Of a stretch of DNA of 63,164 bases, positions 23,509-50,869 are shown in pieces. The notes beneath the pieces are model-generated. The model was not told the origin of the DNA. It made no database searches and was given only the letters and a program-made list of their open reading frames with translations. Position 1 is the stretch's first letter; every line of letters starts with the position of its first letter. Both the position numbers and the translations under genes were made by a program. This stretch comes from Ignavibacteria bacterium (GTDB taxonomy: Bacteria > Bacteroidota > Ignavibacteria > Kapaibacteriales > UBA2268), in NCBI GenBank assembly GCA_012522895.1, contig JAAYJM010000096.1, forward strand, positions 1-63,164, in the 5' to 3' direction.

Positions 23509-25353
23509 CTACTTTCCACGCCTTGACAACTCAACTTTAAACTTCATTAGTTTAGCATCTCGAAGCAATTCAATTTCAACGACATCGCCAGGGCTATGCT
23601 CGCGAATTGCATAAGTTAAGTCATAAAGATTGTTTATAATTTTTTCTCCAAATTTTGTAATAATATCGTCCTTTTTTAGTCCGGCTTTTTCAGCCGGGCT
23701 TCCTGCACTTGTTCCCGAAATTTGAAAGCCAAAAATATTATCTTCAAAATTAGGCACTATTCCAAACCAAGCTCCTTTACCCGCCCCCTCGCCAGACATT
23801 GCATCTTTAAAATCCATTTTTACAAGAGCGTATTCCGGCTTAGCTTCATTATTTCCAATATAATCTAAAATTTTCATAGAAAAGTCGCTAACTTTTGCCA
23901 TACCTTCAAAATTTATTTTTTCAAAAGTATCGCTTGGCTGGTGATAATCCGAGTGCAAACCAGTAAAAAAGAATAGAACAGGGACATTATTAGCATAAAA
24001 AGAACTGTGGTCGCTTGCACCAAAAGGGTCAGCAGATTTCGACACAATAAGCTCTTCGATAATCGCTATCGAGTCGACAAGGTCTTCAAAGTATGGCGAA
24101 GATCCTGTTCCAATCACGCTAAGCTTATCATAGCTCATTCTTCCTACCATATCGAGATTGAGCATAAAAATAGTGTTTTCCAATGGAATAAGCGGATTGC
24201 GAACATAATGACTTGAGCCTAATAAACCCATTTCCTCGCAATTAATTGCAAAAAAGACAACAGAGCGCTTTAAGGGCTTTTTAGCAATTCTATCGGCAAG
24301 CTCAAGAAGAACCGTTGTTCCAGAGCCATTATCATCGGCTCCATTGTGAATTTGCGGTTTTTTACCGCGATACAACGAATTGGGACCACCCCAGCCGAGA
24401 TGGTCAAAGTGAGCCCCTACAAAAAGATATTCTTCCGCAAACTTTGGATCTTTTCCCCGCACCATTCCAAGCACATTTGGAACTTTTGCCTCAACTATTT
24501 CAATATCGGTTTTCACGCTGACAGTAGTGTTTGCAAGAACAAAACTTTTTGGTTTTTGCTCTTTAAGGATTTCCTGCTCAACCAGGTAAAGTTGCCTATC
24601 GCGAGGGAAAAACTTTGAGAGGCTTGTCCTTGATGCTTGAATGACCGGGATATTATTGCTTTTGAAAAAGCGAACAAGCTCAAGCGGGATAAAGACATCA
24701 GAGGAATCGCCCTGGTCTTTTACGAAAATAATAGCTTCAGCCCCTTTCGATTTAGCGGTGGAGGCTTTATATTTTAACTCGCTATATTCCTTAAACTTAG
24801 AAATTTTAGGACGCCCTTCAGCAGAATCAATTAGGACGATAACAGCTTTCCCGCTTACGTCTATGCCTTCATAATCATCATATCCAATATTGCTTGCACT
24901 AATGCCATAGCCAACAAAAGCAATTTCTCCCGAAAAACTTGCATTGTCCGAAAAACTAATAGGGTAGTAGTCTTCGCCAAGCGTCCATTTTCTTTCAACT
25001 GGCTTAAGCTTATCAACTGGAATGCCTGGCCTTTCTATAAGCACATTGAAGGAAACGCTGTTTTCTTTGCCAGCCTTGGCGCCGGAGGAAATTGAAAAAT
25101 ATTGAAAATAATCTTCTCCAAGCGGGCTAAGTCCAATATTTTTAAAATGATTTGCTATAAAATCAGCAGCATCGAAATTGCCCTTTTTCCCCGGCTCCCT
25201 TCCTTCCAACTCATCGGAGGCAAGGTAACGTAAATACTCTTTCATTCTCTCAACAGCCTGTTCTTCTCCAAAGGCCAGATTCAAATTCAGCACAGGGAGA
25301 ACTAAAATGAGAAAATAAAAGAGAATTTTTCTATGTAATAATTTAAATCGCAT
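23509..25353 (-). CDS. secreted M28 aminopeptidase with PA domain and C-terminal PDZ domain
   Basis: It has a signal peptide and the M28 metal ligands HFDHLG, DDNGSGT, EEMGLLGS and DMVG. The C-terminal PDZ-like segment is SGTSAGSPAEKAGLKKDDIITKFG. Confidence 0.8.
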   Translation of the reverse strand: MRFKLLHRKILFYFLILVLPVLNLNLAFGEEQAVERMKEYLRYLASDELEGREPGKKGNFDAADFIANHFKNIGLSPLGEDYFQYFSISSGAKAGKENSVSFNVLIERPGIPVDKLKPVERKWTLGEDYYPISFSDNASFSGEIAFVGYGISASNIGYDDYEGIDVSGKAVIVLIDSAEGRPKISKFKEYSELKYKASTAKSKGAEAIIFVKDQGDSSDVFIPLELVRFFKSNNIPVIQASRTSLSKFFPRDRQLYLVEQEILKEQKPKSFVLANTTVSVKTDIEIVEAKVPNVLGMVRGKDPKFAEEYLFVGAHFDHLGWGGPNSLYRGKKPQIHNGADDNGSGTTVLLELADRIAKKPLKRSVVFFAINCEEMGLLGSSHYVRNPLIPLENTIFMLNLDMVGRMSYDKLSVIGTGSSPYFEDLVDSIAIIEELIVSKSADPFGASDHSSFYANNVPVLFFFTGLHSDYHQPSDTFEKINFEGMAKVSDFSMKILDYIGNNEAKPEYALVKMDFKDAMSGEGAGKGAWFGIVPNFEDNIFGFQISGTSAGSPAEKAGLKKDDIITKFGEKIINNLYDLTYAIREHSPGDVVEIELLRDAKLMKFKVELSRRGK

Positions 25354-25362
25354 TTCTTACTC

Positions 25363-25617
25363 TTATTTTACTAAAACAATCTTTTTTAAAGCTGAGCTTT
25401 CTCCGTCAGATATTCTTAAAAAATACAGTCCCGACCCAGTCAAGGCAGAATTAAAAGAAAGCGCGTATTTATAAGTGCCGCGCTCCAAATAGCCATTAAA
25501 AACAGAGAATTGGACATTGCCAAGTCCATCAATAAGCTCTATTGAATAGTTTGCTTCTTTTGGAATGCTAAGCTCCAAAAGAGCTTGGTCTCTAATTGGA
25601 TTTGGACTTATCCGAGC
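25363..25617 (-). other. T9SS type-A C-terminal sorting domain coding segment (S8 protease)
   Basis: The last 84 aa read ARISPNPIRDQALLEL...GLYFLRISDGESSALKKIVLVK. Confidence 0.7.
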
Positions 25618-28809: not shown

Positions 28810-28898
28810 AAAAAACCTTTAACAAATATTTATTAGAAACATTTCATTTTTCATATAAAAAATGATAAATAATATATTCAAATTTAGCATTTTTTATA

Positions 28899-28939
28899 CG
28901 AAAATAAAAAAGGCGAGCAGAAATTAATCTGCTCGCCTT
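28899..28939 (-). terminator. rho-independent terminator of the 2299-aa gene
   Basis: On the minus strand an 11-bp stem (aaggcgagcag / ctgctcgcctt) is followed by TTTTTATTTT. It lies 30 nt after the stop at 28969. Confidence 0.7.
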
Positions 28940-28968
28940 AAAATCAACATTTATAATTATTCCCTTAA

Positions 28969-29217
28969 TTAGGGCATAACGATAAATGATTGGATTGCAA
29001 ATTCGCTTGCGCCAGTAGAGACTTTAAGTATATAAAGACCAGCAGCCACATTTCCAGTTGGAATTGAGAAGCTGTGCTCTCCAAGACTCATAGTTTTGCT
29101 TTCTTGAATGGAAACTATTCTATTGCCATCAGCATTGTATATTTCTATAGTTACTGGGCTTGATTCGTAAACATTCATAGAGAAATTAATTAAATCTGAT
29201 ACTGGATTTGGAGCAAT
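28969..29217 (-). other. T9SS type-A C-terminal sorting domain coding segment (2299-aa protein)
   Basis: The last 82 aa read IAPNPVSDLINFSMNV...GLYILKVSTGASEFAIQSFIVMP. Confidence 0.7.
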
Positions 29218-32200
29218 ACTGCTTAAGCTGAATTGTGCATTTCCTTCGTATCCGTCATACTCATCACCAGCAAGAGCTTCTCTTGAACCAGCAACTTTTT
29301 CTCTTGGGTTAAATACTGCACTGTTGAGGTTATAGCTCTCTGTTCCAGGGCCATCCTCAGTAATATTATATGCAAATACTCTGAAGTGATAAGTTGTGCC
29401 AGTAGCAAGTCCAGTTACGGTTAATGGGGTTGTTATTGATGGAACTGCTGCTGCGTTATAGACAACGTAAGCATCTCCAACTTGTGAACCTGCACCAAAA
29501 ACTGTGCTTGGATCGTAAGTTACCCCATTTACTGGGAAGTCGTTTACTGTGAGTGCTGATCCTGCTTTTGCAAGTGCAACACGGTAGGAACCTGCTCCGC
29601 TTGTTGGTAACAACCAAGTCAAAGCAACCGATGTGGCGGTAGAGTTTCTAAATGTAATAACTCTATCTTGACCAAGTGGAACTGGTGCAGATAACTTAGT
29701 AGTTTCATTGCCAAGAGCTGCGGTGCTAAGATAAACTGTTCCAGCACCAAAGCCATTAAAGGTATATACTGCAAAATAGTATGTAGTTCCTTCGGCAAGT
29801 CCGGTAACTGTAACGTTATCGCCAGATCCAGCATAAACAACATAAGCGCCAGATATTTCATCGCCTAATCCATAAACTGCGTTTGCTGAATAGCTTTCGC
29901 CATTAAACGGTGCTGTAAATGGATAGGAATCTGTTTTGGCAAAAACTATTGAGTTCGCTCCATCGCCAGGAGTCCAAGCAACATTTAATTGGGTTGTTCC
30001 AATTGTTGGGAAATGAACATTGCTCGGTGCCTCTGTTGGCGCCGAAACTGCTGTTTGCACATCGCCAGTCAAAGGATCACTGTTATAATTAAAGGAGTTA
30101 AGTATATCATCGCCTTGGACACCAGAACCATTATATGCATAAAGTTCAAAGTAATAGAATCCGCTTTCCATTAAATTGCTAAGAACGAAAGTATTACCTG
30201 TGCCATTATATACAATGTAACCATCTCCTAAAGCTGTTCCGTCTCCAAAAGATGTATTTCCTGCTGGATAGCCATGATTATCTTCTGGAACGCCAGAATT
30301 ATAAGAACCAATATTATATGCTACTACAATAGTTTTTTCAGCATTTTGAGCCTTTGTCCAAGTAACTCTTAATGAAACATCAGCTATTTCTGTGAAAACA
30401 AGATTTGTAGGTTGATCTGGCTCATTGGCTAAGGTTTTAATTTCCTCAATATTAGACCAAGCTGAATAGCTATCATTTAAAGCATAGTATGCTCTAATTT
30501 TCACGCTGTAAAGAGTGTTAGCTGATAAATCATCTAAGTCAAAGTCGCGGAATTCACCAGGAAGATCAAATACATCACCATTAACCCAAAGTTCAAAGGC
30601 ATCTGGATCTTCGTCTACATCATATTCCCAATAAGTTGAGAAGCCTTCTTCCCATTTATTGTCTGGCGTCAACATAACTGGAGTTGGCAGAGCAATATTC
30701 CAGATATTGATAGAGCCATAATCTTCAGTATTGTAATTATGTGTATTTAATGGATATGTATCATATTGAGTTACAACTCCACCATTGAACACAAAAACAT
30801 TAAAGAAGTATTGAGTAAATGGCTCAAGTCCGCTAATAGTTGTATTTTGACTTGTGCCAATATAAACAACTTTACCATTGTTTAATTCGGGGGCATTGCC
30901 GAAATTAGTATCAAACTCATATTCAGTTGCGTCTTCTGGCATAGCGATAAGCTCGCCTGGCTCATAATCATAAGCAACTATTAAAGTGCGATAAGCATCG
31001 CTTGGCTTTAACCAAGATAAATCTATTGTGTTTTCTACAATACCGACTTCTGCAGTCAAGCCTGTTGGGCCATTAGTTGGCTCAACATCGAGAGTAATTA
31101 CTGGCTCAGCTGTTGAGAATGTATATGAGCCACCATAATTTGCAATGACAGCATAGTAATACAGTGTTGTCGGAGTTAATTCATCAATAAAGATTGAATT
31201 AACATTGCCAACATCATAATCTTCAATTAAATTGCCCTCTGAGTTATAAAGATAAATTTCAAATGCATCAACATTACCGCTATAAGTCCACTCGGCTAAG
31301 AAGCCTGTATCGGACTTATAAGTAGTTGGTATAATAACAGGTGCTGCCGGTAAAGTGCTCTTGCTTCTTGGGTTGTTTGCAGCGTTATTTACGTTGTATG
31401 CAATGCATTCAGAGTAGTTATACTCATACACTTTAAATGTATAAAGCACGCCACCAAGTAATCCGGTAACATCAACTCTATCGCCTGTTCCATTGTAAAT
31501 GGCGTAGCCTGATCCGATCATCGAACCTTCGCCATAAACTGAATTTGCTGCATAAGAAGTGTATAACTCTGGTGTCGCATCAATTTCACCTGGATAAGCA
31601 ACAACTAATACTTTCTCACCATTACCGCGAGTCCATCTTACTTTCATACTCTGAGAAGTTACAGAGGAGAAAATAATATTCTTGCCTTGCACGGTTGGCG
31701 GATCGCAAAATACTTCTTGTTCAGTTGTAAAGCTCCATACCTCTGACCACTCGCTTGTAAAATTGTCATTATAGCCATTTACGCGCCAGTAGTAAGTAGT
31801 GCCATACTCTAAACCTTCAATATCTATTGTAGTTTGAGAGGTCTGTCTTGCAATAGCAAAGTCAAAATCTGAATCTGTTGATAATTCAAAATTATACATA
31901 TTAGCATTATCAGCTGCTTCCCAGTTAAATTCAACTAAAGAAGGAGATAAATTCAAACTACCATCAAATGGAGAAACAAGTATAGGTGCATCAATCCAGT
32001 CTTCATCAAGATAAGCTAAAGTAGAAATAACGTAATAGCCATTTACAGCATAATTTCCGCTACCTTGTGAGTAGGCAACTGAATTTGCAGTATAATATTC
32101 TCCGGTTGATGCTTTATATAATTTGTATCCAATAGTTTGGCCCACAATCATACCATCTGTTTCTGCAGTTTGATCGTCATCGCCCCAAACAGTAAGATGA

Positions 32201-35200
32201 TTTGCTTCTTGCGGTGGTGGTTGAACTACCCACTCAACTGCGCCAACGCAGAAACCGAGAGGCGAGAAAGCAGCTACCCAGTCTCCGTCTTCAAGTGGAA
32301 CTCTGTTTATCGTTGGAGTAGAGGTGTAAGGAATAAGCACAGTTGCATTGTTGCCAGTATTTGCTGTCCAAATAAATGGATCTGCTTCTGCAGTCTGGAA
32401 CGACCATACTTCTGACCATTCACTTATTCCACCAAGTTCATTTGTAGCATTTACACGCCAGTAGAAAGTTGATAAGCCAGTTAAATTATAAAATGTAGCT
32501 TCATTGTTATAAACAGTTCCGTAATAAACAATATTGTTGGAAAAGACTGGAGAAGTTGCAACCTCAATATAATATTCGATTGCCGTTTCTACTTCTTCCC
32601 AAGTAAAGTTAACTTCAACTGTAGGAACATCAACTTCATTATTTAACGGAGCAAGTAAAACTGGTGCCTCTGGCACTGGTGCGCTTTCTGTTGTAAATGA
32701 CCAAGCTGCCGACCAGTCACTTTCGTTGGACAAATCGCTCTTGGCTTTTACACGCCAGAAATACTGAGTGCCATAAGCTAAATCGCCAAAGAACACAGTT
32801 GTTTCTTCTGTCCAGCCACTGGCTAAAATATCTGAGAAAATATCATTAGCAGAAACTTCAAAGTAAGACTCGATTGCTGGGAAAGTGATTTCCCAAGTTA
32901 AATCAATACCTTCGATAGAAACATCGCTTGTGTTATTTAAAGGAGATACTAAAACTGGAGCAGGGATATATTCGGATTTTGTAGTGAATGCCCAAACTTG
33001 TGACCATTCGCTTTCATATCCCTCAGCAATAGCTTTAACATGCCAGAAATATGTTGTTTCGTATTCAAATTCGCCCTGATACCCTGTTTCAAATACTTCC
33101 TCGCCAAGAACGATTCCGCTAAAGGAAATATCAGTTGCAACTTCAATATAGTAAGAATCAGCATCTTCGCTTTCATACCAAGAGAAGTCAACAGCTAAAG
33201 GCAAATCTTCTGATGCGTCAAGTGGAGCAATCAAAACTGGTGCTGCTGGAACGAAAGGTTCGGTTATAAACCACCATACTTCGGACCATTCGCTTGTGCC
33301 ATTTTCATTTGTTGCACTTACGCGCCAGTAATAAGTTGTTAAATATTCAAAACCTGTAAGATTGATTGATGTCAAAGAAGTCTCGAAAGTATAAGGATCA
33401 ATAAAATCTGAGGTTTCCAAAATTTCAACAGTATAATAGGCAGCCTCTTCTACGGCTTCCCATTCTAAGATTATTGAGCTAATAGGAAGATCAACAGCTT
33501 CATTTTCTGGTGCCACTAAAAGTGGTGCTGCTGGTGGTTCTGGAACTTCTTCTTCTTCAGTTATGAAGCTCCAAACTCCAGACCAATCGCTCTCTTCTTC
33601 ATCATTAAATGCACTTGCTCTCCAATAATATGTTGTGTTATAGTTCAAACCTTCTACTTCAACTGAGGTTCCATCAGTTTGATAGGCTATTGTTTGAGTA
33701 AATGCTTGGTCTTCTGACAGCTCTATATCATAACCGGTTGCACCTGAAACTGCGTTCCAAGTTAGCAATGGATTTATCGATACACCTGTTGCTCCGTTTA
33801 CTGGTGAAACAAGAACAGGAGCTTGAAGCGGAGGAGGACCACCTGCTGGTGTTACACTCCCATTTATGTAAGTAACATCAAGCTCATCCAAAGCATCGTT
33901 TGTAAATAAACTACGCTCTGTATCCCAAGTTAAGTCAGTTTCTGAAGTCCCTATGTAAGTAAATTGCAAATTAAAGATTAATGTGCCATCGGGAACATCT
34001 ATTGCCTCTGTCCCAGTCGACCAAATATAAGCCATTACATTCGGATTGCCTGCTTCATAAATTGAGCCTGGGAATAAAGATGTATTTACATCTTGAAACG
34101 AGGGATTCGAAAGCTTTGTGCCATCATAATCAACAAACATTGTGATGCCATTAACAGCGTAATCCACGCCGCTAAAGCCATACATTGTTACTGGAACAAG
34201 AACAACATCACCAGTATTTGCTTCGACAGTTCCAACCTTTACTGTCGGACCATCAAAAACGAAACCTTGTGTTGAAAATGACCAAACTTCTGACCAATCG
34301 CTTTCTTCTTCATTATTAAAAGCATTTACACGCCAATAATATGTTGTCTCTTCTTCTAAACCAGTTACTTCAAAAGAAGTTTCATCAGTTTGATAAGAAA
34401 CAGCAAAACCGAATGTTTGGTCAGTAGAAAGTTCAATATTGTAAGAGTCAGCTCCAAGAACTGATTCCCACGCTAAATTAAGCGTAGTTTCTTGATCAGT
34501 TGCACCATTGATTGGTGAAGCAAGAACAGGAGCTTGAAGTGATGGGGGACCACCTGCTGGGCTTACACCACCATTTATATAATTAACATCAAGCTCGTCC
34601 AAAGCATCGTTTGTAAACAAACTACGCTCTGTATCCCAAGTTAGATCTGTTGCTGTCGTCCCAATATAAGTAAACTGCAAATTAAAGATTAATGTGCCAT
34701 CAGGAACATCCACTGCCTCTGTCCCAGTCGACCAAATGTAAGCCATTACGCCAGGATTACCCGCCTCATAAATCGAGCCTGGGAACAAAGATGTATTTAC
34801 ATTTTGGAAAGATGGATTCGAAAGCTTCGTGTCGTCATATTCAATAAACATTGTGATACCGTTGACTGCAAAATCCACACCGCTAAAACCATCCATTGTT
34901 ACTGGAACTAAAACGACATCACCAGTGTTTGCCTCAACTGTTTCAACTGTTACTGTAGGACCAGCGGGAGGCTCTCCAGAGGGGTTAACAGCACCGTCAA
35001 TATAAATAACATCAAGCTCATCTAAAGCATCGTTTGTAAACAAACTACGCTCTGTATCCCAAGTTAGATCTGTTGCTGACGTCCCAATATAAGTAAACTG
35101 CAAATTAAAGATTAATGTGCCGTCGGGAACATCCACTGCCTCTGTCCCAGTTGACCAAATGTAAGCCATTACATTCGGATTACCTGCTTCGTAAATTGAG

Positions 35201-35868
35201 CCTGGGAACAAAGATGTATTTACATTTTGAAAAGATGGATTCGAAAGCTTCGTGCCATCATAGTCGATGAACATTGTGATGCCATTTACTGCAAAATCCA
35301 CACCGCTAAAACCATCCATTGTTACTGGGATTATAACTATATCGCCAGTGTTAGCCTCAACTGTTCCAACTGTAACTGTAGGACCAGCGGGCGGCTCTCC
35401 AGGAGGAGTAACAGCACCATCAATATAAGTTACATCAAGCTCATCTAAAGCATCGTTTGTAAACAAACTACGCTCTGTATCCCAAGTTAACTCTGTTGCT
35501 GTCGTCCCAATATAAGTAAACTGCAAATTAAAGATTAATGTGCCATCGGGAACATCTATTGCCTCAGTGCCTGTTGACCAAATATAAGCCATTATATTCG
35601 GATTACCTGCTTCATAAATTGAGCCTGGAAACAAAGATGTGTTTACATTTTGGAAAGATGGATTCGAAAGCTTCGTGCCATCATATTCGATGAACATCGT
35701 GATGCCATTAACGGCAAAATCTACCCCGGTAAAACCATCCATTGTTACTGGAACTACAACAACATCACCAGTATTTGCCTCGACAGTCCCTACTGTTACT
35801 GTAGGTTGTGAGTAAGATAAATAGCTGCAAAGCAGCATTGTTAAAGTTATCAAAAATATTCTTTTCAT
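28969..35868 (-). CDS. giant (2299 aa) T9SS-sorted surface protein: four cohesin-like modules, about 7 YYWR-type FN3-like repeats, one orphan WGDD module, about 7 further FN3-like repeats
   Basis: It has a signal peptide. The 141-aa repeats show PTVTVGTVEANTGDVVxVPV...IEYD...DGTLIFNLQF...IDGAV. Repeated TTYYWRV motifs are present, and the C-terminal tail is PNPVSDLINF...GLYILKV... Confidence 0.8.
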   Translation of the reverse strand: MKRIFLITLTMLLCSYLSYSQPTVTVGTVEANTGDVVVVPVTMDGFTGVDFAVNGITMFIEYDGTKLSNPSFQNVNTSLFPGSIYEAGNPNIMAYIWSTGTEAIDVPDGTLIFNLQFTYIGTTATELTWDTERSLFTNDALDELDVTYIDGAVTPPGEPPAGPTVTVGTVEANTGDIVIIPVTMDGFSGVDFAVNGITMFIDYDGTKLSNPSFQNVNTSLFPGSIYEAGNPNVMAYIWSTGTEAVDVPDGTLIFNLQFTYIGTSATDLTWDTERSLFTNDALDELDVIYIDGAVNPSGEPPAGPTVTVETVEANTGDVVLVPVTMDGFSGVDFAVNGITMFIEYDDTKLSNPSFQNVNTSLFPGSIYEAGNPGVMAYIWSTGTEAVDVPDGTLIFNLQFTYIGTTATDLTWDTERSLFTNDALDELDVNYINGGVSPAGGPPSLQAPVLASPINGATDQETTLNLAWESVLGADSYNIELSTDQTFGFAVSYQTDETSFEVTGLEEETTYYWRVNAFNNEEESDWSEVWSFSTQGFVFDGPTVKVGTVEANTGDVVLVPVTMYGFSGVDYAVNGITMFVDYDGTKLSNPSFQDVNTSLFPGSIYEAGNPNVMAYIWSTGTEAIDVPDGTLIFNLQFTYIGTSETDLTWDTERSLFTNDALDELDVTYINGSVTPAGGPPPLQAPVLVSPVNGATGVSINPLLTWNAVSGATGYDIELSEDQAFTQTIAYQTDGTSVEVEGLNYNTTYYWRASAFNDEEESDWSGVWSFITEEEEVPEPPAAPLLVAPENEAVDLPISSIILEWEAVEEAAYYTVEILETSDFIDPYTFETSLTSINLTGFEYLTTYYWRVSATNENGTSEWSEVWWFITEPFVPAAPVLIAPLDASEDLPLAVDFSWYESEDADSYYIEVATDISFSGIVLGEEVFETGYQGEFEYETTYFWHVKAIAEGYESEWSQVWAFTTKSEYIPAPVLVSPLNNTSDVSIEGIDLTWEITFPAIESYFEVSANDIFSDILASGWTEETTVFFGDLAYGTQYFWRVKAKSDLSNESDWSAAWSFTTESAPVPEAPVLLAPLNNEVDVPTVEVNFTWEEVETAIEYYIEVATSPVFSNNIVYYGTVYNNEATFYNLTGLSTFYWRVNATNELGGISEWSEVWSFQTAEADPFIWTANTGNNATVLIPYTSTPTINRVPLEDGDWVAAFSPLGFCVGAVEWVVQPPPQEANHLTVWGDDDQTAETDGMIVGQTIGYKLYKASTGEYYTANSVAYSQGSGNYAVNGYYVISTLAYLDEDWIDAPILVSPFDGSLNLSPSLVEFNWEAADNANMYNFELSTDSDFDFAIARQTSQTTIDIEGLEYGTTYYWRVNGYNDNFTSEWSEVWSFTTEQEVFCDPPTVQGKNIIFSSVTSQSMKVRWTRGNGEKVLVVAYPGEIDATPELYTSYAANSVYGEGSMIGSGYAIYNGTGDRVDVTGLLGGVLYTFKVYEYNYSECIAYNVNNAANNPRSKSTLPAAPVIIPTTYKSDTGFLAEWTYSGNVDAFEIYLYNSEGNLIEDYDVGNVNSIFIDELTPTTLYYYAVIANYGGSYTFSTAEPVITLDVEPTNGPTGLTAEVGIVENTIDLSWLKPSDAYRTLIVAYDYEPGELIAMPEDATEYEFDTNFGNAPELNNGKVVYIGTSQNTTISGLEPFTQYFFNVFVFNGGVVTQYDTYPLNTHNYNTEDYGSINIWNIALPTPVMLTPDNKWEEGFSTYWEYDVDEDPDAFELWVNGDVFDLPGEFRDFDLDDLSANTLYSVKIRAYYALNDSYSAWSNIEEIKTLANEPDQPTNLVFTEIADVSLRVTWTKAQNAEKTIVVAYNIGSYNSGVPEDNHGYPAGNTSFGDGTALGDGYIVYNGTGNTFVLSNLMESGFYYFELYAYNGSGVQGDDILNSFNYNSDPLTGDVQTAVSAPTEAPSNVHFPTIGTTQLNVAWTPGDGANSIVFAKTDSYPFTAPFNGESYSANAVYGLGDEISGAYVVYAGSGDNVTVTGLAEGTTYYFAVYTFNGFGAGTVYLSTAALGNETTKLSAPVPLGQDRVITFRNSTATSVALTWLLPTSGAGSYRVALAKAGSALTVNDFPVNGVTYDPSTVFGAGSQVGDAYVVYNAAAVPSITTPLTVTGLATGTTYHFRVFAYNITEDGPGTESYNLNSAVFNPREKVAGSREALAGDEYDGYEGNAQFSLSSIAPNPVSDLINFSMNVYESSPVTIEIYNADGNRIVSIQESKTMSLGEHSFSIPTGNVAAGLYILKVSTGASEFAIQSFIVMP
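34537..35805 (-). repeat. intragenic tandem repeat, 3 x 423 bp (cohesin-like modules 1-3); a fourth dispersed copy at about 33830-34251
   Basis: The period of 141 aa was counted between successive PTVTVGTVEANTGD starts (aa 22, 163, 304). Long DNA stretches are visibly near-identical between copies. Confidence 0.9.
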
Positions 35869-35937
35869 ATTACTATCCTTATTAGTTAATAAAACTCAAA
35901 ATACATTGAAATAGCTATTAAAAGTTACTTCAAAATA

Positions 35938-36900
35938 TTAGAGTGGCGGGGTATAGCTGCCATTTACATCACCAGCACAAAGCGCTTTAATATTAACCCC
36001 TGTTACATCTTCACCATTAACAACTACTTCTGGCTTTTCAAAAACCCAATCAGGAAGACTCCATGCATTGGTGTTCCCACCTACGATTTTTCTTTGCATT
36101 AAAATCGCATCAGTGTTGTTAACAACATTGTTATTTTGAACGTCAGCAGCTTTTTGTTGAAACTCGCCTAACTGAAATCCACTGTAAGATACAATATGTC
36201 TTTTAACCAAAATTCCGTCTGTATTATTAAGTCCACCCCATGCTTTCTCGGTTGAGCAAGCAATTGTATACTCTCCATTTTCTACATTTTCAAAAGAATA
36301 TGCACCAGTTGGGCTTGTTTGAGTAGATGCAATAATCAATTGGCCAGAAATCAAAGAGACTGTTGTGTTTGTCATAGGAGTATTAGCAGTATTGGCATAG
36401 CTGATTATTCCACTGATTGTGAAACCTGGATCTCCACCTATAAATGTCATAGAACTAATAACCCAAATACCATTGGCTACATAAGCACCTGTTGCATTGC
36501 TGCTTGTAGCATCGTAAGAAACTGCTTCGGCGATATGTTCTTCACCTGTCTCTTGTCTCCAAAGACGATACTGAATTACCTCGCCGCCGGCTAAACCATC
36601 AACTGCTGTTGTTTGGTCGTCATCGCCCCATACTGTGAGCCCATTAGCTAATTGTGGTGGATCGTTTACTTCCCAAAGTATTGCGCCAACACAAAATTCA
36701 TTATTCGAGCCAAAAGCACCAAGCCAATCGCCTGCTTGGATAGCATCGCCATTGAATGTAGGTGAATTAGCATAAGGTAAAATCACACTACCGTTATTAC
36801 CGGTAATTGCCGTCCATGTCCATGGAGCCTGTTGAGCATCTGCTTGTGCAAAGACAAACAATAATGCTATGCTTAATGCTGCGATTCGTAAGTAACGCAT
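35938..36900 (-). CDS. secreted 320-aa protein: orphan WGDD module + CarboxypepD_reg-like beta-sandwich + dockerin-like C-terminal segments; no T9SS tail
   Basis: The signal peptide ends AQADA-QQ. It carries LTVWGDDDQT, TISGIISY...TGAYSFENVENGEYTI, then GLNNTDGILVKRHIV and DVQNNNVVNNTDAILMQRKIVGG, and ends with GDVNGSYTPPL. Confidence 0.6.
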   Translation of the reverse strand: MRYLRIAALSIALLFVFAQADAQQAPWTWTAITGNNGSVILPYANSPTFNGDAIQAGDWLGAFGSNNEFCVGAILWEVNDPPQLANGLTVWGDDDQTTAVDGLAGGEVIQYRLWRQETGEEHIAEAVSYDATSSNATGAYVANGIWVISSMTFIGGDPGFTISGIISYANTANTPMTNTTVSLISGQLIIASTQTSPTGAYSFENVENGEYTIACSTEKAWGGLNNTDGILVKRHIVSYSGFQLGEFQQKAADVQNNNVVNNTDAILMQRKIVGGNTNAWSLPDWVFEKPEVVVNGEDVTGVNIKALCAGDVNGSYTPPL

Positions 36901-37098
36901 ATTTAAAACCTCAAAATAGTGAGAAAAAAGTTAATTATATTTCATTATAAACTATGTTATATACAATATTTGCACATTCTTTTTGTAAAAATATCTAATA
37001 TTTTCTAAAAAAACAAATATTTATACGCTTTTGTTACTATTATTACTTAATAGTAACAACAAATATATAAAAAAAATTAAAAAAAAAAAAGAAATATT

Positions 37099-37124
37099 AA
37101 GAAATTAAAAAAAATTAATTTCTT
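37099..37124 (-). terminator. possible AT-only hairpin terminator after the 881-aa gene
   Basis: The stem aagaaattaa / ttaatttctt has a 6-nt loop and is followed on the minus strand by a long T-rich run. All pairs are A-T, so it is weak. Confidence 0.3.
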
Positions 37125-37132
37125 TTATCATT

Positions 37133-39778: not shown

Positions 39779-39879
39779 AAAAACATTGAAAAATGATTTG
39801 AAAACATATTACAAATTAAAGAAAAATCTGTAATTAAACAAGAGCGATTTGGATTAATTCTGCTTTTTTGTATTCAAAG

Positions 39880-39909
39880 AAAAAAAAGCAGCCTATTTGC
39901 ATAGGCTGC
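39880..39909 (-). terminator. rho-independent terminator of the 3645-aa gene
   Basis: On the minus strand the stem gcagcctat-gcaa-ataggctgc is followed by an 8-nt T-run. It lies 23 nt after the stop at 39932. Confidence 0.7.
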
Positions 39910-39931
39910 CTTTTATAAAAAACGCATAAGC

Positions 39932-40180
39932 TTACTTTGTAATAAGCATTATTTGATTTGCTTGCTTGAAGCCAGAGCGAATAACTAAATTATAAGTTCC
40001 AGATGCCAAGTTAGAAACATCGAAATTAACTGTGTGGATGCCAGCTTTAAAGTTTGCACTTGTAATGCTTGCAATCTTTTGACCGCTTATTGAGTATAAG
40101 TCAATTTCCACATCTCCCTCGTTTGGCAGGCTAAACTCAATTACTGTATTAGCTGTCGCCGGGTTTGGAATGTTCTTAAT
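39932..40180 (-). other. T9SS type-A C-terminal sorting domain coding segment (3645-aa protein)
   Basis: The last 82 aa read IKNIPNPATANTVIEFSLPNEGDVEIDLYSISGQKI...GTYNLVIRSGFKQANQIMLITK. Confidence 0.7.
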
Positions 40181-43100
40181 TGCAATGTCTCCAGCAATCG
40201 CATTTCCTTCTGCAATGGCTTTTGCAAAGTAAATCGCACCTTGAGTATATGTGATATACTCTGGATTTGTGCCGCTAAGAAGTTCGCTAATCTGATAAAG
40301 ATTAAGATCGCTATATTTACCATCGGTCGGGTTATAAGTTTTTACTAACAAATAATCCCCTTCGATGGCGCCTTCGTCATTTTGAGTTAATTCATTATTA
40401 CCCCAAATATTAATTCCAGCAAAGCCATTGTTAATAACGGCTGCGCCTATCAATTCACCTTTTGAACTCCAAACGCCAACTTCTTGATTATTAAAGCTAT
40501 TGCCTAAATCAAGGACAAGTGTAGCGTCATTTCCAGTGTTCTTTACAGTTGGAATTAAATATTTTGGCAATGGAGTAATATCGTTAATACCAGCTCTTGA
40601 TTGGATTACGTTGCTCGGATATACTAATTCGGCATTTGCAGAAACATATAAGTTATAGCCTTCGCCGGGCAATAGATCACCAATTGTGTTGATATTGAAT
40701 TGAGGAATATAAACTTCACCAGAGCCACTCTTTGCAACTATTAACTGGTTATGAATTGAAGCAAAACCTGTTTGAGCTGCAATAGGATTGTCTCTCAAAT
40801 ATGAAGACAATCGCCAGCCCGATTGCAAGTAAATTGGAGTTGCAACTGGATCGATTTTTTCACCAGTAACTTGAAGTTCAGCATCAGCTAACATATAAAC
40901 CATATAGCCGTGCCTAATATTCCAATTATTAATCGTATTGATATTCCATTGAGGAATGTATTGCTGTCCAAGTGAATTTTTAACTATTCTCACGTTTGAA
41001 GCAATAGGAGCAAAAATATTCACAACATTTGGAGCTGTTGGGCTGAGATAACTTGAAATCATATTCCAGCCGTTAGTCAATTGAAGCGACTGCGTTTCCG
41101 TAGTAAGAACTTCTAAACTTGACAGAACTGAAACTGCTGCAATTTGATAATTATCAGGTCCTGAAGCAAAAATCGGCTCAGCATTGTAAATGTCTTTTGC
41201 CTCATTGTCCCAAACCTTGAATAAATATGTCTCTCCAATAGAATATCCATCTTTTTCTGTTGTCGATAGGTCGTCTCCATAAACAGTAATTGGAAGCTCG
41301 TTCCCATCCCAAACACCATAGCCAGCGCAAGCAAATATTCCGTCATTATCGTAGAACAAGCCAATAGCATCGCCAGTAACAAAAGAACGATCCCCAATTA
41401 GCGATACAGCATCACTTGGAACTATGATTGTCGAGCTATTATTTGTTTCTACCAGGGTCCAAGGAGTAAAGTCTATCGGCTCAGTTAAGAATGTAAATAC
41501 ATCTGACCAAGGACCAGTTACTCCGTCTTTACTCGCTCTTACTTTCCAATAATAGCTATGATTATTCATTAAAGCATTTTGAGCAAAGTAGCTGTTTGCT
41601 GTAAGCCCGATAGCGTTAACAGGAGTTACTCCAAAGTGTGCATAAGGAGATACTTGAATATGGTATGTTGCGCCTTCAATAGCTTCCCACTCAAAAGTTG
41701 GATTTAATGATTGGCGAACTGCATTATTTACTGGTGATAATAAAGTTACAGGACCGACAGCTGTTCTAAAGCTAAATATCTCAGACCAGGAACTATAATT
41801 TTCATACCAATCATCATAAGCTTGAATTCTCCAGAAATATTGAGTATTGGGTAATAAATTGTTAACTTGATAATTGTTATAATACTCTATTTCTTCACTT
41901 TCAATTATTTCTTCAAATTCGCTGTCCGAAGCAAGCTCAAAGTAATAGTAGTCAGCATCAGGAACATTTTCCCAAGTGAATTGTGCATTAGTATAGCTAA
42001 CGCCGCCAGCATTGTTTGCGGGAGTTAAAAGAGTTGGCTCAGCTAATTGAGTTAAGAACAGCCACATAGTAGCCCAGTTGCTAAAATTACCTGTAGAGCT
42101 CTTAGCTCTTACTCTCCAAGCATACCAAGTGCTTGGCTCTAATCCTTGAATTCCGGCACTCAAAGAAATAGTGTTGAAGTCATAAACTGTTGAATCAAGC
42201 GAATAACCTGTTAATACCTGAACTTGATATTGATTAGCATCTGCTGAGCTGTTCCAAGTTAAAACAGGGTCAAGCGCTATTGAAACAACATCGTCTAAAG
42301 GCGAGACAAGTGTTGGCGTAGCTAAGACTGTTGTAAAGTTTCTGGTTTCAGACCAATTTGTGCTATTGCCAAACATATCAACTGCTCTAAGTCTCCAATA
42401 ATACATAGTATTTAATTCGAGATTTGACAATAAATAACTTAAGCCATTTAATCCAACTTGATTTATTAAAGTAGTCGAAAATTCACTGTTTAATGATAAC
42501 TGTAATTGATAGCTTGCAGCTCCTTCAAGTGCGTTCCAAGACAATGCTCTGTTTAGGACAACTCCGACAGCATTGTTCTCTGGTTGAGCCAAAGTTGGAG
42601 CTCCTAACTGGGTAGTAAATGCCCAAACCTCAGACCAATTAGAAACTATATCTTCATCAATCGATGCCCTGAGCTTCCAATAATACACCGTATTATTTTT
42701 TAAAGGAAGTATAGCTTGGATAGTAGTTCCAGTTATGTCCTCGGCTGCAAATGGAGTTCTACCAGTAAAGTCTTCATTCTCTGAAACAATGATGCTGTAA
42801 CGAACTAAATCTTCGGGGCCCACTGCTTGCCAATTAAATGTTGGGAATAATGGAACGTTAATCGCATTATTTAAAGGAGAAACAAGCGTAGGCGCTGCCA
42901 ACATTCCTTTACCTATAAGTCCAATATTTGGACGGTTCATAGAAACCGAGCTTGCCGATCTGGCATCGCAAATATTTGGATTACCATTTTGATACTTTAC
43001 CGCTACGCTATTGTATGAAGTAGCTGTATAATACGTAGAAGCGTTAAAAGTGGTTGATGGAGTATAGAAGCAAGTTTGAATAAGCACGTTAGAAACGCCA

Positions 43101-46100: not shown

Positions 46101-49100
46101 GCTGTGTATTCTGGATCTTCAGATTTTGAATCAAAATCTTTGTTCGTTGCTGTCTGCCAAGCCTCCAATGTTGTTTTACTGTTTCCAACAGCATAGCTTG
46201 TTCCAATATGTCCCAAAACGCCAAAAGGTCCGCCTGCATAGTAATCATTGAAATCAATATCTGTGAATGATGTAGCTGAGCCTAATATACAAATTGCATA
46301 AGAAGCTGAGCCATCTAATCCAGCAAGTGAGTTTGTAAACACGTTGTTTCTAAGATCAAGACCTGTAACGCTTGCACTTGTAACAAGGAATGCTGCGGAT
46401 AAAGAGCCCGCAGAGCCTGCACTGCCTTGATAACCAAAAAGATTAACGCTGTTGTGCCAAACCTTTATATTCGTTCCGCCTACAATTCTAATTCCAAATG
46501 GATTATATGTTGTGCTTGTCGCGCTGTAATTCATTGTTGAAATGTCGGCGACTTCGTTATTTACGATAGTAATATCGCTGTTTCCAGTAGCAGTGCTAAT
46601 ATTAATACCATAAGCTCCCCAGCCACCGGAGGTTGATTGTTCCACACCAATCACTCTATTAGCTTTGATTAATGCACCTCCACAGCCTGCGCCAATTTCA
46701 ATAGCTGAATTAGTTGAGCCAGTGGTTAATCTTAAATTGCGGAGGTAGTTATTTGCAATCACAGGGGCATTTGCATAAGAAATATTAATTCCTCTATACC
46801 ACACAAAATAAGCTGAATTATCGCTACCAATTTCATTGTCAATAATATTTAAATTATCATTAACACCGGTTGAGCTTGCAAGCACATTTATACCATAATA
46901 TGCTCTTTGAATATGATTATTTTGAATTGTTAAATTATCGTGGTCGGCGCCTGCTCCAGATGTCGAAACAGTAGTGCCGCCAGCGTAAATTCCTAATGTT
47001 GTTGTGGTTGATTCGCTAGTATTTGCACCAATAATGTTAGTATTTTTGATAGTAACATTTTCGCAGCCAAGACCATTGCCCAAGCTCTTGAGCCAAACTA
47101 CTGCGTTAGTTCCACTTGTTGCATTATTTCTTATAGTAAGGTTTCTTTCACCTTCGTTAAATTCACCATCAATAATCACGCGATTAACGTTATTAAGAAT
47201 GATAACTGCTTCGGTTGTCGCTGCTCTTTCAATAGTAATATATGGAGTTCCAGCTTTAATAGTTAAATAATAGCCACCAAGTCCAACCTCATTCCACTGA
47301 TCAATTGTAAGTGCTGCGCTTAATGCTTGATTTTCTAAAATAGAAAGCTCTACATCACCAGATAAGCCAAGCAAAGCAATGTCAATGAAGGCAGCTTCTA
47401 AACTCGGATAATCGCCGTCTGTTCCTATTGTATAAACACCTGAAAATGGGCTTTGGATTTGTCTTGCGCCTTGAGGCTGTGTTACTGTTGGAGTATAGTC
47501 TTCTCCATCTACCGTAACTTGCAAGCATCCGGCATCAACCCAATGATTATTTACTGCATTTTCAAGTATATCGAATGTCAGCCAGAAATAATTTGTGCCA
47601 GGAGCCAATTCCTGTTCGCCAGAAATCTCAAATGTAGCAGTTGGAACTTCAAGAGTTTCGCCGAATTGATTTACAGCTTCAAACTCATTGCTTATTCCGG
47701 TATACCACAATTTTGCATTTTGTATATCACTCAAACTTGTGGTTCCATCAGTTGTAATGCTAAAGTTTGTTGCGATTAAGGGATTTAACTCGCCAGTAGT
47801 AACGACTTCAATTCCAATAATAGCTTGTTCGGTTGCACCTTGGCTCAATGGATCGTCTATTTGCCTTGTAGTGCAAGAAAGGTATTCCATATCTGAGGGG
47901 AAAGTAGCAATACTTATATCATCAATGTGCATAGAGTAGCCATAGTTACTCAGTGCTTTAAACATCACTACTGCGGCGCCATTAAATTCTGGCGGAATAT
48001 AGAATGTATATTCATACCAGCCATTTGAAGACTCAACTGGAGGCAAAGTAGTAGAAACGTTAATAGTGCCGAGCAAGGTTGCCCCTGTTAAACTCGCTGT
48101 GGTATTAACATATACCTCAAATTTATCTTGATAAGAACTGCTATATCTATATGTCCAGAAAGAAACAGGGCACTCTTCCGCTCCGCGATTCGACAAGTCA
48201 AGAGTCGGCGAGAAAAGCGTTGCATAATTGCCGTTTGAAGACAAATAGCTATAATAACGAACCATAGCCGGCGCTGAGTGCGGAGAGCAAGTCGGACTTG
48301 TTCCGCTTGTAACTCTTTCCCAGTTATAAGTTCCCTGCCCAATCATAGCTGTCCAGCCAAGCGGTGGGAATGTTTCTGAAGTAAAATCTTCAAAAAACAT
48401 AGTTGGCTCGGGTCCCGGGGCAGAAATTTGCCTTCCCTCTCCTGGATTTGTTACTGTTGGTTCATAATTTTGTCCATCTACTGTTATTGAAGTGCATTGA
48501 GCATTAACAAAATTCCCTGGCGTTGCACCCTCTGCTATGTCAAAAGTTAGCCAGAAATAGTTTGTGCCATGAAGCAACTCTAAATTGCCAGCAATATTAA
48601 ATGCTGCACTAAGCTCTCCAACCGTTTCACCAAATTGATTTTCAGCTTCAAACTCATTGCTTGTTCCTGTATACCACAATTTTGCATTTTGAATATCGCT
48701 TAAGCTTGTGGTTCCATTAGTTGTGAAACTAAAATCAGTTATGCTAATCGGGTTCAGCTGTCCATCGCTTACAAGCTCAATACCAATAATCTCTTGATTT
48801 TCAGCGCCTTGCTTCATAAGCACGGATTCCATAGCTTGAGTTGTGGTGCTGGACACATATTCCATATCCGATGGATAAGTTGTGATGCTAATATCATCAA
48901 TGTGCATAGAGTAGCCATAAGCACTTACAGCTTTAAACATCACAACAGCTGGTCCATTAAACTGGGCTGGAATATTAAATGTATATTCGTACCAGCCATT
49001 TGCGGACTCAACTGGAGGCAAAGTAGTAGAAACATTAATAGTGCCGAGCAAGGTTGCCCCTGTTAAACTCGCTGTGGTATTAACATATACTTCAAATTTA

Positions 49101-50869: not shown

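Follow-up and report, generated by a model that had tools for sequence, protein, structure and literature searches.

A candidate T9SS-anchored, non-cellulolytic cohesin-dockerin display locus beside a giant adhesin-like gene in an Ignavibacteria bacterium

Overview

Analysis of a block of six genes for predicted secreted proteins in the genome of an Ignavibacteria bacterium leads us to propose, with moderate confidence, that its core is a T9SS-anchored, non-cellulolytic cohesin-dockerin display system standing beside an independent giant adhesin. The 2299-aa protein of the block (G2299) would use its type A C-terminal sorting domain (CTD) for export by T9SS and then become attached at the cell surface, displaying four near-identical cohesins on a long FN3 stalk. 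The predicted dockerin of the adjacent 320-aa protein (P320), which is part of a composite module termed here CRD-Doc, would plug into these cohesins, and further CRD-Doc proteins from elsewhere in the genome would presumably plug in likewise, the outcome being a non-cellulolytic, cellulosome-like surface complex. A first-pass annotation of the same DNA had found no described system to compare with this block; the four Pfam cohesins and the adjacent predicted dockerin fit a cohesin-dockerin system.

Organization of the block

The analyzed window (the whole stretch of DNA, 63,164 nt) contains six consecutive minus-strand genes (Table 1), which the first-pass annotation had described as all encoding signal peptides and as including three T9SS type A cargo proteins. 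Both descriptions are upheld: the ORF coordinates match, all six N-termini are signal-peptide-like by a SignalP-independent heuristic (a basic region at the start, ahead of a hydrophobic segment), and TIGR04183 scores above its cutoff (23 bits) in the 1148-aa S8 protein (30.8 bits), G2299 (31.3 bits) and the 3645-aa protein G3645 (29.4 bits). Neither TIGR04183 nor PF18962 detected a CTD in the M28 protein, P320 or the 881-aa protein P881.

Table 1. Position of the gene block and of its individual features within the window
Feature	Position	Strand	Content or basis
Six-ORF block	23509-50869	all minus	each ORF exactly at its annotated coordinates
M28-PA-PDZ aminopeptidase, 614 aa	23509..25353	minus	Pfam; no CTD
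S8 subtilase, 1148 aa	25363..28809	minus	BNR/sortilin region, choice-of-anchor-D-type Ig domain, T9SS type A CTD
Intrinsic-terminator-like hairpin (12 bp, 7 GC) + T-run	28910..28939	minus	3' of G2299
G2299, scaffoldin-like surface protein, 2299 aa	28969..35868	minus	Pfam, TIGR04183, repeat map
T9SS type A CTD of G2299 (aa 2216-2299)	28972..29223	minus	Pfam + TIGR04183
W ("WGDD") module of G2299 (aa 1154-1290)	31999..32409	minus	cassette HMM positions 6-128, E 2.7e-20
Cohesin 4 of G2299 (aa 538-680)	33829..34257	minus	one FN3 between it and cohesins 1-3
Cohesins 1-3 of G2299 (aa 20-443)	34540..35811	minus	direct tandem, mutual identity 90-94%
P320, small secreted protein, 320 aa	35938..36900	minus	signal peptide + W module + CRD-Doc, no CTD
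CRD-Doc of P320 (aa 158-320)	35941..36429	minus	CarboxypepD_reg/SdrD_B-like beta-sandwich, inserted predicted dockerin
W module of P320 (aa 16-157)	36430..36855	minus	sequence match to G2299, cassette HMM
P881, 881 aa	37133..39778	minus	signal peptide, DUF7948, SBBP beta-propeller, tandem GWN, no CTD
Tandem GWN of P881 (aa 721-881)	37136-37618	minus	cassette HMM positions 118-291, E 1e-54
Intrinsic-terminator-like hairpin (14 bp) + T-run	39883..39914	minus	3' of G3645
G3645, giant adhesin-like T9SS cargo, 3645 aa	39932..50869	minus	Pfam, repeat map, TIGR04183
T9SS type A CTD of G3645 (aa 3568-3645)	39935..40168	minus	Pfam + TIGR04183
Pre-CTD cassette of G3645 (aa 3128-3570)	40160..41488	minus	W, GWN1, GWN2, linker, W'

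The terminators previously reported after the genes of G3645 and G2299 are likewise present as hairpins with T-runs. P320 is located upstream of G2299 at a terminator-free distance of 69 nt, with terminators flanking the neighbours of the pair, and the two genes are probably in one transcript. The order giant, P881, P320, cohesin giant and S8 protease is kept in relatives with P320 orthologues of 70-77% identity, and conserved gene order was seen over a P320 identity range of 57-77%; in locus L011 the five-gene order including S8 is conserved, with S8-scaffoldin adjacency kept (73% identity). The expected synteny of four to six genes in related genomes is thus borne out for the order of five genes, but only to genus-level depth, in close relatives.

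All ten of the closest flanking genes that were scanned have housekeeping functions, base composition is even, and there is no sign of a phage, mobile-element or defence origin. No T9SS machinery (PorK/L/M/N, Sov/SprA, PorU/V) is found within the 63-kb window.

A multi-cohesin scaffoldin-like protein

G2299 consists of a signal peptide, three tandem cohesins, one FN3 domain, a fourth cohesin and five FN3 domains, followed by a W module, another FN3 domain, diverged FN3-like repeats and the T9SS type A CTD. The cohesins are assigned by Pfam (PF00963, 91.8 bits in four stretches, cutoff 24.1), as are the FN3 domains (fn3, 186.7 bits) and the tail (Por_Secre_tail, 39.9 bits), and the first three cohesins are also recovered by TRF as a repeat with a period of 423 (2.9 copies, 90% matches at 34565-35805). 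A single-sequence search of PDB with the cohesin region returned FN3 matches only. Cohesin-like repeats, earlier listed among the modules shared by the last four genes, turned out to be confined within the block to this protein; the FN3 counts proposed for the two giants (about 7 and about 10) agree with the repeat map.

A predicted dockerin embedded in a beta-sandwich

The candidate partner of these cohesins is the CRD-Doc module of P320, whose dockerin, as judged from sequence, is placed inside a transthyretin-like sandwich. The insert has its helices at aa 226-236, 246-252 and 262-272, whereas GDVNGSYTPPL forms the end of the module; an AlphaFold2 model of P320 (pLDDT ~90 over aa 160-320) has three helices between beta strands. 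Pfam assigns CarboxypepD_reg to P320 (28.9 bits), matches CRD-Doc with SdrD_B as well, and gives Dockerin_1 (PF00404) 18.5-20.7 bits, under its gathering score of 22.9. The P320 family profile matches solved dockerins (8x39_A at 7e-9, 1ohz_B at 4.7e-7 and >15 others) and aligns with both F-hand segments of many of them. CRD-Doc relatives exceed the Dockerin_1 gathering score (e.g., 31.3 bits), 23 of 55 match it at E<1e-5, and some are named "dockerin type I domain-containing protein" by NCBI. The invariant columns of CRD-Doc are the calcium-ligand positions; in P320, calcium loop 2 has the canonical form and loop 1 a degenerate one, apparently completed by the C-terminal GDVNGS motif. Apart from the W module, Pfam revealed no enzyme domain or obvious binding cargo in P320.

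These observations bear on an alternative that we regard as somewhat unlikely, according to which the block holds independent T9SS cargo genes without any assembly. In that case the P320 insert would have only a structural, calcium-binding role within a CnaB/SdrD-B-type sandwich, and the cohesins would be spacers or would recognize some partner that is not P320. Each of the giants, as well as P881 and P320, would be an adhesin or binding protein in its own right, composed of the FN3, W, GWN and cohesin-like Ig folds typical of the lineage. Foldseek with the P320 model points in this direction, since its best matches are SdrD B/CnaB-type, UafA and NOMO sandwiches, with dockerin not among the matches, and the SdrD-B/CnaB-type sandwiches have structural calcium sites of their own; so do the SdrD_B match and the sub-gathering Dockerin_1 score, the generic nature of the W and GWN modules (see below) and the terminators that set G3645 and G2299 apart from the genes following them. 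This alternative is opposed by the profile match to both F-hand segments of solved dockerins, by the invariance of the calcium-ligand positions and, beyond P320 itself, by the behaviour of CRD-Doc as a C-terminal tag and its recurrence beside cohesin genes in distant genomes.

CRD-Doc as a multi-copy tag linked to cohesins

CRD-Doc was confirmed in 303 stretches of species-representative genomes, its spread covering Bacteroidales, Ignavibacteria and Kapabacteria MAGs, with 6 to at least 12 loci in single MAGs of Bacteroidota and Ignavibacteria. It occupies the C-terminus, or a position close to it, in proteins of 200-3800 aa, and its cargo in distant genomes (surveyed in 55 CRD-Doc ORFs from fetched loci) includes CBM20/48, BD-FAE esterase, Peptidase_M43, Metallophos and GEVED domains. 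CRD-Doc behaves like a multi-copy recruitment tag on unrelated cargo. Pfam-confirmed cohesin genes adjoin it in distant loci L085, L018 and L036, strict (first-round) cohesin HMM matches occur in four further CRD-Doc loci, and a cohesin is found inside the CRD-Doc ORF itself in 4 of the 55. The linkage to cohesins is based only on these strict first-round and Pfam-confirmed matches. A cohesin HMM iterated for three rounds flagged 55 of 77 distant loci and was set aside as over-reaching, several of its targets being unconfirmed by Pfam; the cohesins it indicated in L066 and L075 were dropped for the same reason, as was a candidate cohesin of ~130 aa that separates CRD-Doc from the CTD. A literature search yielded no paper describing cohesins or dockerins in Ignavibacteria.

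The co-occurrence of cohesin and dockerin, as well as the CBM20/48 or esterase domains on some CRD-Doc proteins of other genomes, would also suit a true polysaccharide-degrading cellulosome or amylosome. We consider such an assignment exceedingly improbable, since Pfam found no glycoside hydrolase or CBM in the scaffoldin or elsewhere in the block, the sole dockerin protein of which is devoid of an enzyme domain.

The pre-CTD cassette and the giant G3645

The first-pass annotation had treated the WGDD (W) and GWN modules as orphans that, with others, tie the last four genes together. In G3645 these modules form a cassette of ~435 aa that directly precedes the CTD and ends in a second WGDD-like domain (W'). 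The "orphan" label is appropriate insofar as the cassette has no Pfam match at E<=1, no NCBIfam match and, in a profile search against PDB sequences, a match of the CTD part alone; its four-domain AlphaFold2 model (pLDDT 90.6, pTM 0.74), searched against PDB with Foldseek, retrieved only generic multi-Ig, pilin and transthyretin folds (TM<=0.16). The label is misleading as to distribution, because the cassette is very widespread: phmmer against 1.84e9 representative proteins gave 7,095 matches (counted as protein clusters at 50% identity), with 1,471 reaching E<=1e-30. Most of the matches listed align in one stretch that spans nearly the whole query and ends ~75 aa from the C-terminus. At least 3 further proteins encoded by this MAG contain the cassette, and other giants have the W module in 10-13 tandem stretches.

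Sharing of W and GWN modules among the four genes is real: P320 aa 16-157 is 46% identical to G2299 aa 1154-1290 and 29% identical to G3645 aa 3110-3233, and P881 aa 636-881 is 30% identical to G3645 aa 3170-3418. The proposed tie between the four genes is weakened, however, by the generic character of the cassette, which makes it no specific bond. In the simplest view the cassette, which is lineage-wide, would be a stalk or attachment platform beside the anchor, single modules of which may have been shuffled into P881, P320 and G2299. Such a role is more economical than that of a specific pairing device, because in thousands of proteins the cassette is normally complete, with all its modules in cis. 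Derivation of P881 and P320 from one split cassette-bearing gene was rejected, given that the signal peptide of P320 is conserved in all orthologues and that its W module aligns with the leading W of the cassette rather than with W'.

Outside its GWN tandem, P881 matches DUF7948 (141 bits) and SBBP (89 bits). G3645, for which Pfam reports MAM, GEVED, three BNR_assoc_N and FN3 domains, starts with a MAM-like domain, GEVED, three BNR_assoc_N + MAM-like units and a possible beta-helix, continues with 10 FN3 domains interleaved with three copies of a 180-aa module without a family match, and ends with the cassette and the CTD; it probably represents an independent giant adhesin-like T9SS cargo. 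The parallel beta-helix region noted earlier (aa 1140-1640) could not be substantiated, having neither a Pfam nor a PDB match and only a weak motif pattern (5 of 9 "LxIxNNxI"-type motifs of the protein fall inside it).

Proteases and the hypothetical six-gene apparatus

Pfam agrees with the naming of the two proteases as M28-PA-PDZ and S8-BNR peptidases and adds an Ig domain to the latter. The M28-PDZ gene starts 9 nt past the S8 stop, and neither protein has a dockerin, cohesin or cassette module by Pfam and HMM scan. The M28-PDZ protein is probably periplasmic, outside the surface system, and the S8 protease would be a separate T9SS cargo. No common module is found in either protease, and proteolysis is tied to the scaffold by adjacency alone. 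Of the modular adhesion or proteolysis apparatus of T9SS-anchored scaffolds and partners that the first-pass annotation had envisaged, a scaffold and a partner are retained, whereas the link to proteolysis is not.

In its full form, that model would comprise a six-gene apparatus with P881 and P320 held on the giants via W-W and GWN-GWN contacts and with S8 and M28 as its catalytic arm. We find it quite improbable. It does account for P881 ending in a GWN tandem and P320 starting with a W module, both proteins being CTD-less, for the conserved five-gene order including S8 in L011, and for the ~44-46% mutual identity that the P320 and G2299 W modules hold across species. These points are countered by the usual intact, cis arrangement of the cassette across thousands of proteins, by the tandem W stretches of other giants, which resemble a generic repeat domain, by the proteases having no common module and M28-PDZ no CTD, and by synteny that comes from close relatives only.

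Weighing the proposed display system

Several points were counted against the favoured display system as well. P320 is CTD-less in a diderm cell, with a cohesin target at the surface; its Dockerin_1 score is sub-gathering, its loop 1 degenerate and its Foldseek result devoid of dockerins. Furthermore, P320 is the single dockerin gene within the 63-kb window, dockerins being absent from both proteases, its cargo is a W module only, and the synteny comes from close relatives only. A bolder version, unlikely in our estimation, would make CRD-Doc a new dockerin class (a split F-hand closed by the transthyretin-like sandwich) that, together with CTD-anchored cohesin scaffoldins, forms a widespread display system in Ignavibacteria/Bacteroidota. 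CTD-less dockerin proteins such as P320 would bind the scaffoldin in the periplasm and hitch-hike through T9SS, a folded-cargo exporter, and W-GWN-GWN-W' would serve as a second docking or anchoring platform for half-cassette proteins like P881.

Comparison with known systems

Bacteroidota surface enzymes are thought to be attached singly through T9SS. If the display system proposed here is real, a multi-cohesin scaffold anchored by T9SS, combined with a dockerin tag present in many copies, would provide a second, combinatorial layer of surface display, and the question would arise by which route dockerin proteins without a CTD traverse the outer membrane. Absence of cohesins and dockerins is routinely stated for Bacteroidota-type bacteria (e.g., PMC5831590). 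Two large families, the CRD-Doc composite of ~160 aa and the pre-CTD cassette of ~435 aa, merit domain models, which would improve the annotation of thousands of hypothetical proteins now described as "T9SS type A sorting domain-containing".

Like Bacteroidota T9SS type A cargo such as gingipains, SprB-type adhesins and ChiA, the CTD proteins of the block combine a signal peptide with a TIGR04183/PF18962 domain at the C-terminus; very large, repetitive, adhesin-like architectures and an Ig-like domain preceding the CTD are further common features. The 435-aa W-GWN-GWN-W' cassette, in contrast, lacks a counterpart in Pfam, NCBIfam and PDB. The sandwich part of CRD-Doc resembles SdrD B/CnaB sandwiches of Gram-positive adhesins, by the best structural match as well as by Pfam SdrD_B, yet it has a helical insert homologous by profile to dockerin F-hands and is a C-terminal tag on varied cargo rather than a stalk repeat.

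Clostridial scaffoldins (e.g., C. thermocellum CipA, type I cohesin-dockerin) are, like G2299, non-catalytic proteins with several near-identical tandem cohesins, and in both cases a surface-fixed scaffold (here a predicted one) is matched with a partner dockerin (here a putative one) that has paired calcium-binding F-hand segments. Unlike the clostridial cellulosome, the system described here belongs to a diderm Ignavibacteria bacterium, has a T9SS type A CTD as the anchor instead of SLH domains or sortase, a scaffold without CBM, no glycoside hydrolase in the block and a putative dockerin inserted in a transthyretin-like sandwich. Cohesins and dockerins in non-cellulolytic bacteria and archaea, often in few copies and with unknown partners, were reportedly noted by Peer et al. 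in 2009.

A cellulosome-like system has been inferred for Ca. Stygibacter (Cloacimonadota), with a CTD-bearing tandem-cohesin scaffoldin and dockerin-tagged peptidases (PMC8542988). Its S8, C25, GH18 and GH57 enzymes have C-terminal dockerins, whereas the S8 protein described here has a CTD and no dockerin; its scaffold carries CBM2/3, whereas ours carries FN3 and W modules; and the dockerin form differs, being here the composite CRD-Doc (PMC8542988). Both cases present a large non-catalytic tandem-cohesin protein with a T9SS-type CTD in an FCB-group MAG, and for both a role beyond a strictly cellulolytic one is proposed (PMC8542988).

Organization of the secreted block

All six minus-strand ORFs that a first-pass annotation had read as a block of secreted proteins were recovered at the positions and lengths it gave (see table), and the N-terminus of each of the six is basic and runs into a hydrophobic stretch, in agreement with the signal peptides claimed. 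The three T9SS type A C-terminal sorting domains (CTDs) were likewise recovered, with no TIGR04183 match in M28, P320 or P881 by NCBIfam scan, and strong hairpins with T-runs follow G2299 and G3645, where terminators had been placed. Intergenic gaps, taken from ORF coordinates, are 153 nt (G3645-P881), 232 nt (P881-P320), 69 nt (P320-G2299), 159 nt (G2299-S8) and 9 nt (S8-M28). The window, a complete 63,164-bp contig of an NCBI MAG, has an even GC content (34-41%) that does not shift at the block. Ten flanking genes were scanned, and all are housekeeping genes or have no relation to the block.

Exact-sequence matches identified rpoN as NLO18994.1, the M28 peptidase as NLO18997.1 and P320 as NLO19000.1. 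NCBI starts lie later (578 aa for M28, 282 aa for P320); since the longer ORFs have signal-peptide-like N-termini, conserved in all orthologues in the case of P320, the signal peptides are probably missing from the deposited gene models.

Features of the block (minus strand; domains of the peptidases, G2299, P881 and G3645 by Pfam/NCBIfam) and of loci in other assemblies
Feature	Coordinates	Length (aa)	Content	TIGR04183 (bits; cutoff 23)
Upstream flank			includes rpoN, TPR protein, cysS	
M28 peptidase	23509-25353	614	M28, PA, PDZ	
S8 peptidase	25363-28809	1148	S8, BNR/sortilin, choice-of-anchor-D Ig domain	30.8
Terminator after G2299	28939-28910			
G2299, candidate scaffoldin	28969-35868	2299	four cohesins (91.8 bits), FN3	31.3
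Tandem cohesins of G2299	34565-35805		TRF period 423, 2.9 copies, 90% matches	
P320, dockerin-like protein	35938-36900	320		
P881, propeller protein	37133-39778	881	DUF7948, SBBP propeller	
Terminator after G3645	39914-39883			
G3645, giant protein	39932-50869	3645	MAM-like, GEVED, three BNR_assoc_N units, FN3	29.4
Module X of G3645	~43370-45379	~180	aa 1830-2010, 2200-2375, 2477-2650	
Repeat unit of G3645	~47450-49880	~325	aa 330-1140, two and a half copies	
Downstream flank			includes SdiA-regulated-type protein, nitroreductase, PFK, racemase, HD protein, holA	
L001 (ENA contig)	9386-10909		two tandem cohesins before FN3	
L043, P0010	9821-11086		CRD-Doc protein	
L066 (Ignavibacteria MAG)	10516-13128		gene just downstream of CRD-Doc gene	
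L088 (Kapabacteria MAG)	10416-12113		gene just downstream of CRD-Doc gene	

A candidate cohesin-dockerin pair

In P320 a signal peptide and a WGDD module (W, aa 16-157) precede the C-terminal half (aa 158-320). There Pfam recognizes the initial two-thirds of a CarboxypepD_reg/SdrD_B sandwich and then Dockerin_1, which with 18.5-20.7 bits narrowly misses its gathering score of 22.9. A P320-family profile (14 members) matches many solved dockerins (8x39_A, 7e-9; 1ohz_B, 4.7e-7; also 2ccl, 4fl4, 3ul4 and others), with alignments spanning both F-hand segments. As the AlphaFold2 model of aa 160-320 (pLDDT ~90) places helices (226-236, 246-252, 262-272) between two strand stretches (160-216 and 285-308), the dockerin is predicted to be an insertion in the sandwich, which Foldseek reads as SdrD B, UafA or NOMO type. 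Across 32 diverse copies of this composite module (CRD-Doc), the (near-)invariant residues are N225 and D228 (loop 1 positions 9 and 12), D253 and D264 (loop 2 positions 1 and 12), and the C-terminal G310-D-x-N-G-S315 and P318. In loop 1 the first five ligand positions are missing, and exactly that half-loop is what the C-terminal tail GDVNGS resembles; from these residues we infer that CRD-Doc may be a split F-hand closed by the sandwich.

The putative partner, G2299, comprises a signal peptide, three tandem cohesins (90-94% identical), FN3, a fourth cohesin, five FN3, W, FN3, diverged FN3-like repeats over ~800 aa and a terminal CTD. Scaffoldins of relatives have three cohesins with ~100 aa between each. 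The number of tandem cohesins also varies between assemblies of the same species: L001, whose P320 protein is identical to that of the window, has two vs. three here, a difference that is either genuine or due to collapse of the repeat in an assembly of low coverage (1.4).

A survey of CRD-Doc over one genome per species yielded 303 confirmed stretches in MAGs of Bacteroidales, Bacteroidota, Lentimicrobiaceae, Ignavibacteria and Kapabacteria, with at least 12 loci in LacPavin_0419_WC90_MAG_44_8, at least nine in ELA540 and at least six in each of three others. Some relatives are already named "dockerin type I domain-containing protein" at NCBI. In 121 ORFs from distant loci the position of CRD-Doc is bimodal: in 52 it lies at the extreme C-terminus, as it does in P320, and in 64 a further 163-255 aa (mostly 216-238) come after it. 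The two such tails scanned each hold a ~130-aa domain and a PF18962 CTD. With mixed cargo (GEVED, CBM20/48, BD-FAE esterase, Laminin_G_3, Peptidase_M43, Metallophos, PKD), CRD-Doc behaves like a recruitment tag; a protein of L043, in which the Fibrobacter succinogenes major paralogous domain (PF09603) replaces the CTD, ties this tag to another FCB-specific C-terminal module. The ~130-aa domain, conserved between CRD-Doc and CTD in about half of CRD-Doc proteins (e.g., L021 ORF aa 3497-3630; L024 ORF aa 952-1086), is cohesin-like by our iterated cohesin HMM, with no Pfam cohesin match; should it prove a divergent cohesin, such proteins could link into chains, dockerin to cohesin.

Pfam cohesins occur within 4 of 55 CRD-Doc ORFs, and at distant loci cohesin genes recurrently adjoin CRD-Doc genes: a strict HMM of the window's four cohesins matches L085, L082, L036, L059, L026, L018 and L076, with Pfam cohesins at L085 (77.5 bits), L018 (33.3) and L036 (32.6). 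The main rival explanation, that the dockerin-like insert is a structural calcium site only and the genes are independent cargo, we regard as rather unlikely. The recurrent adjacency and the terminator-free 69-nt gap argue for P320 and G2299 as a cognate pair, for which we infer binding.

The order giant, P881-like, P320-like, cohesin giant is kept where P320 orthologues are 57-98% identical (contigs from several samples and two NCBI MAGs), a phylogenetic depth so shallow that synteny says little about function; in L011 an S8 gene (73% identity) follows the scaffoldin. The two closest MAGs with the cluster (L011, CAZCHH010000011.1; L012, CAZCLJ010000030.1; P320 70-72% identical) have the title "uncultured Hyphomicrobiales bacterium", an alphaproteobacterial label that clashes with T9SS cargo and the window's Ignavibacteria label and is probably a taxonomic mislabel or binning error.

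Lineage-wide modules and internal repeats

Segment-wise BLAST bore out the sharing of modules between block proteins and the FN3 counts (canonical copies: seven in G2299, ten in G3645). Cohesins, proposed as a shared module, are present only in G2299, and a proposed parallel beta-helix region found no support from the models searched. WGDD and GWN, described as orphans, are indeed without a curated model but lineage-wide in other proteins.

In G3645 (aa 3128-3570) they form a cassette in which W is followed by a GWN pair and then by W', a second module with weak similarity to W (pairwise E 0.017). A cassette search against 1.84 billion representative proteins gave 7,095 matches (4,663 at E<=1e-10; 1,471 at E<=1e-30). 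In the majority of the 150 listed, a single alignment spans nearly the whole query and ends ~75 residues before the C-terminus; PF18962 follows immediately in all ten scanned, with FN3, SBBP, BNR or unannotated N-terminal parts. Named proteins are "T9SS type A sorting domain-containing protein" of Kapabacteria, Saprospiraceae, Bacteroidota and Ignavibacteria, and at least three other giants of the window's MAG carry the cassette (NLO19597.1, NLO18871.1, NLO19278.1). The cassette is predicted with confidence by AlphaFold2 (pLDDT 90.6) to fold as four domains: W is a beta-sandwich, the two GWN modules are small alpha/beta domains and, after a linker, W' is again a sandwich. Neither fold nor sequence search gave a characterized relative. 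From its fixed position beside the CTD, the cassette may be a stalk or a platform for attachment; a docking role is also possible.

The modules are separable, some proteins having 10-13 matching stretches (best, W) and others lacking the first W. Thus, P881 (GWN tandem at the C-terminus), P320 (W at the N-terminus) and G2299 (W internal) hold pieces of a generic lineage-wide cassette, not a private set of linking modules. In the L066 and L088 proteins a putative scaffold and the cassette would be combined in compact form: a cohesin-like domain at the N-terminus (recognized by our own HMM but not by Pfam), two FN3 and the cassette, with a terminal CTD in L066 and the L088 copy running off the contig end.

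G3645 further contains module X (no Pfam match), whose copies, mutually 42-64% identical, are interleaved with FN3 pairs, and a repeat unit of BNR_assoc_N and MAM-like jelly roll; copies 1 and 2 are in parts 94-97% identical (aa 501-625 vs. 826-950), indicating very recent internal duplication.

Interpretation and comparison with known systems

Overall, the first-pass observation of the block is confirmed and its interpretation as a module-linked adhesion or proteolysis apparatus supported in part, the proteases not being linked by modules. By analogy, the block would work like a cohesin-dockerin scaffold. The best explanation, somewhat more probable than its alternatives together, is that G2299 and P320 form a T9SS-anchored, non-cellulolytic cohesin-dockerin display pair beside an independent G3645 adhesin, the P881 propeller protein and two module-unlinked proteases. 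The interest lies in two large unnamed module families and in how CTD-less dockerin proteins get out.

We found no paper on cohesins or dockerins in Ignavibacteria, and literature on T9SS Bacteroidetes states that both are absent from the phylum (PMC5831590). The nearest published analogue is Ca. Stygibacter, with an inferred CTD-bearing tandem-cohesin protein and dockerins on S8 and C25 peptidases (PMC8542988). Unlike clostridial cellulosomes, the present block combines a diderm host envelope, a T9SS anchor and a dockerin of composite architecture, with no CBMs or glycoside hydrolases.
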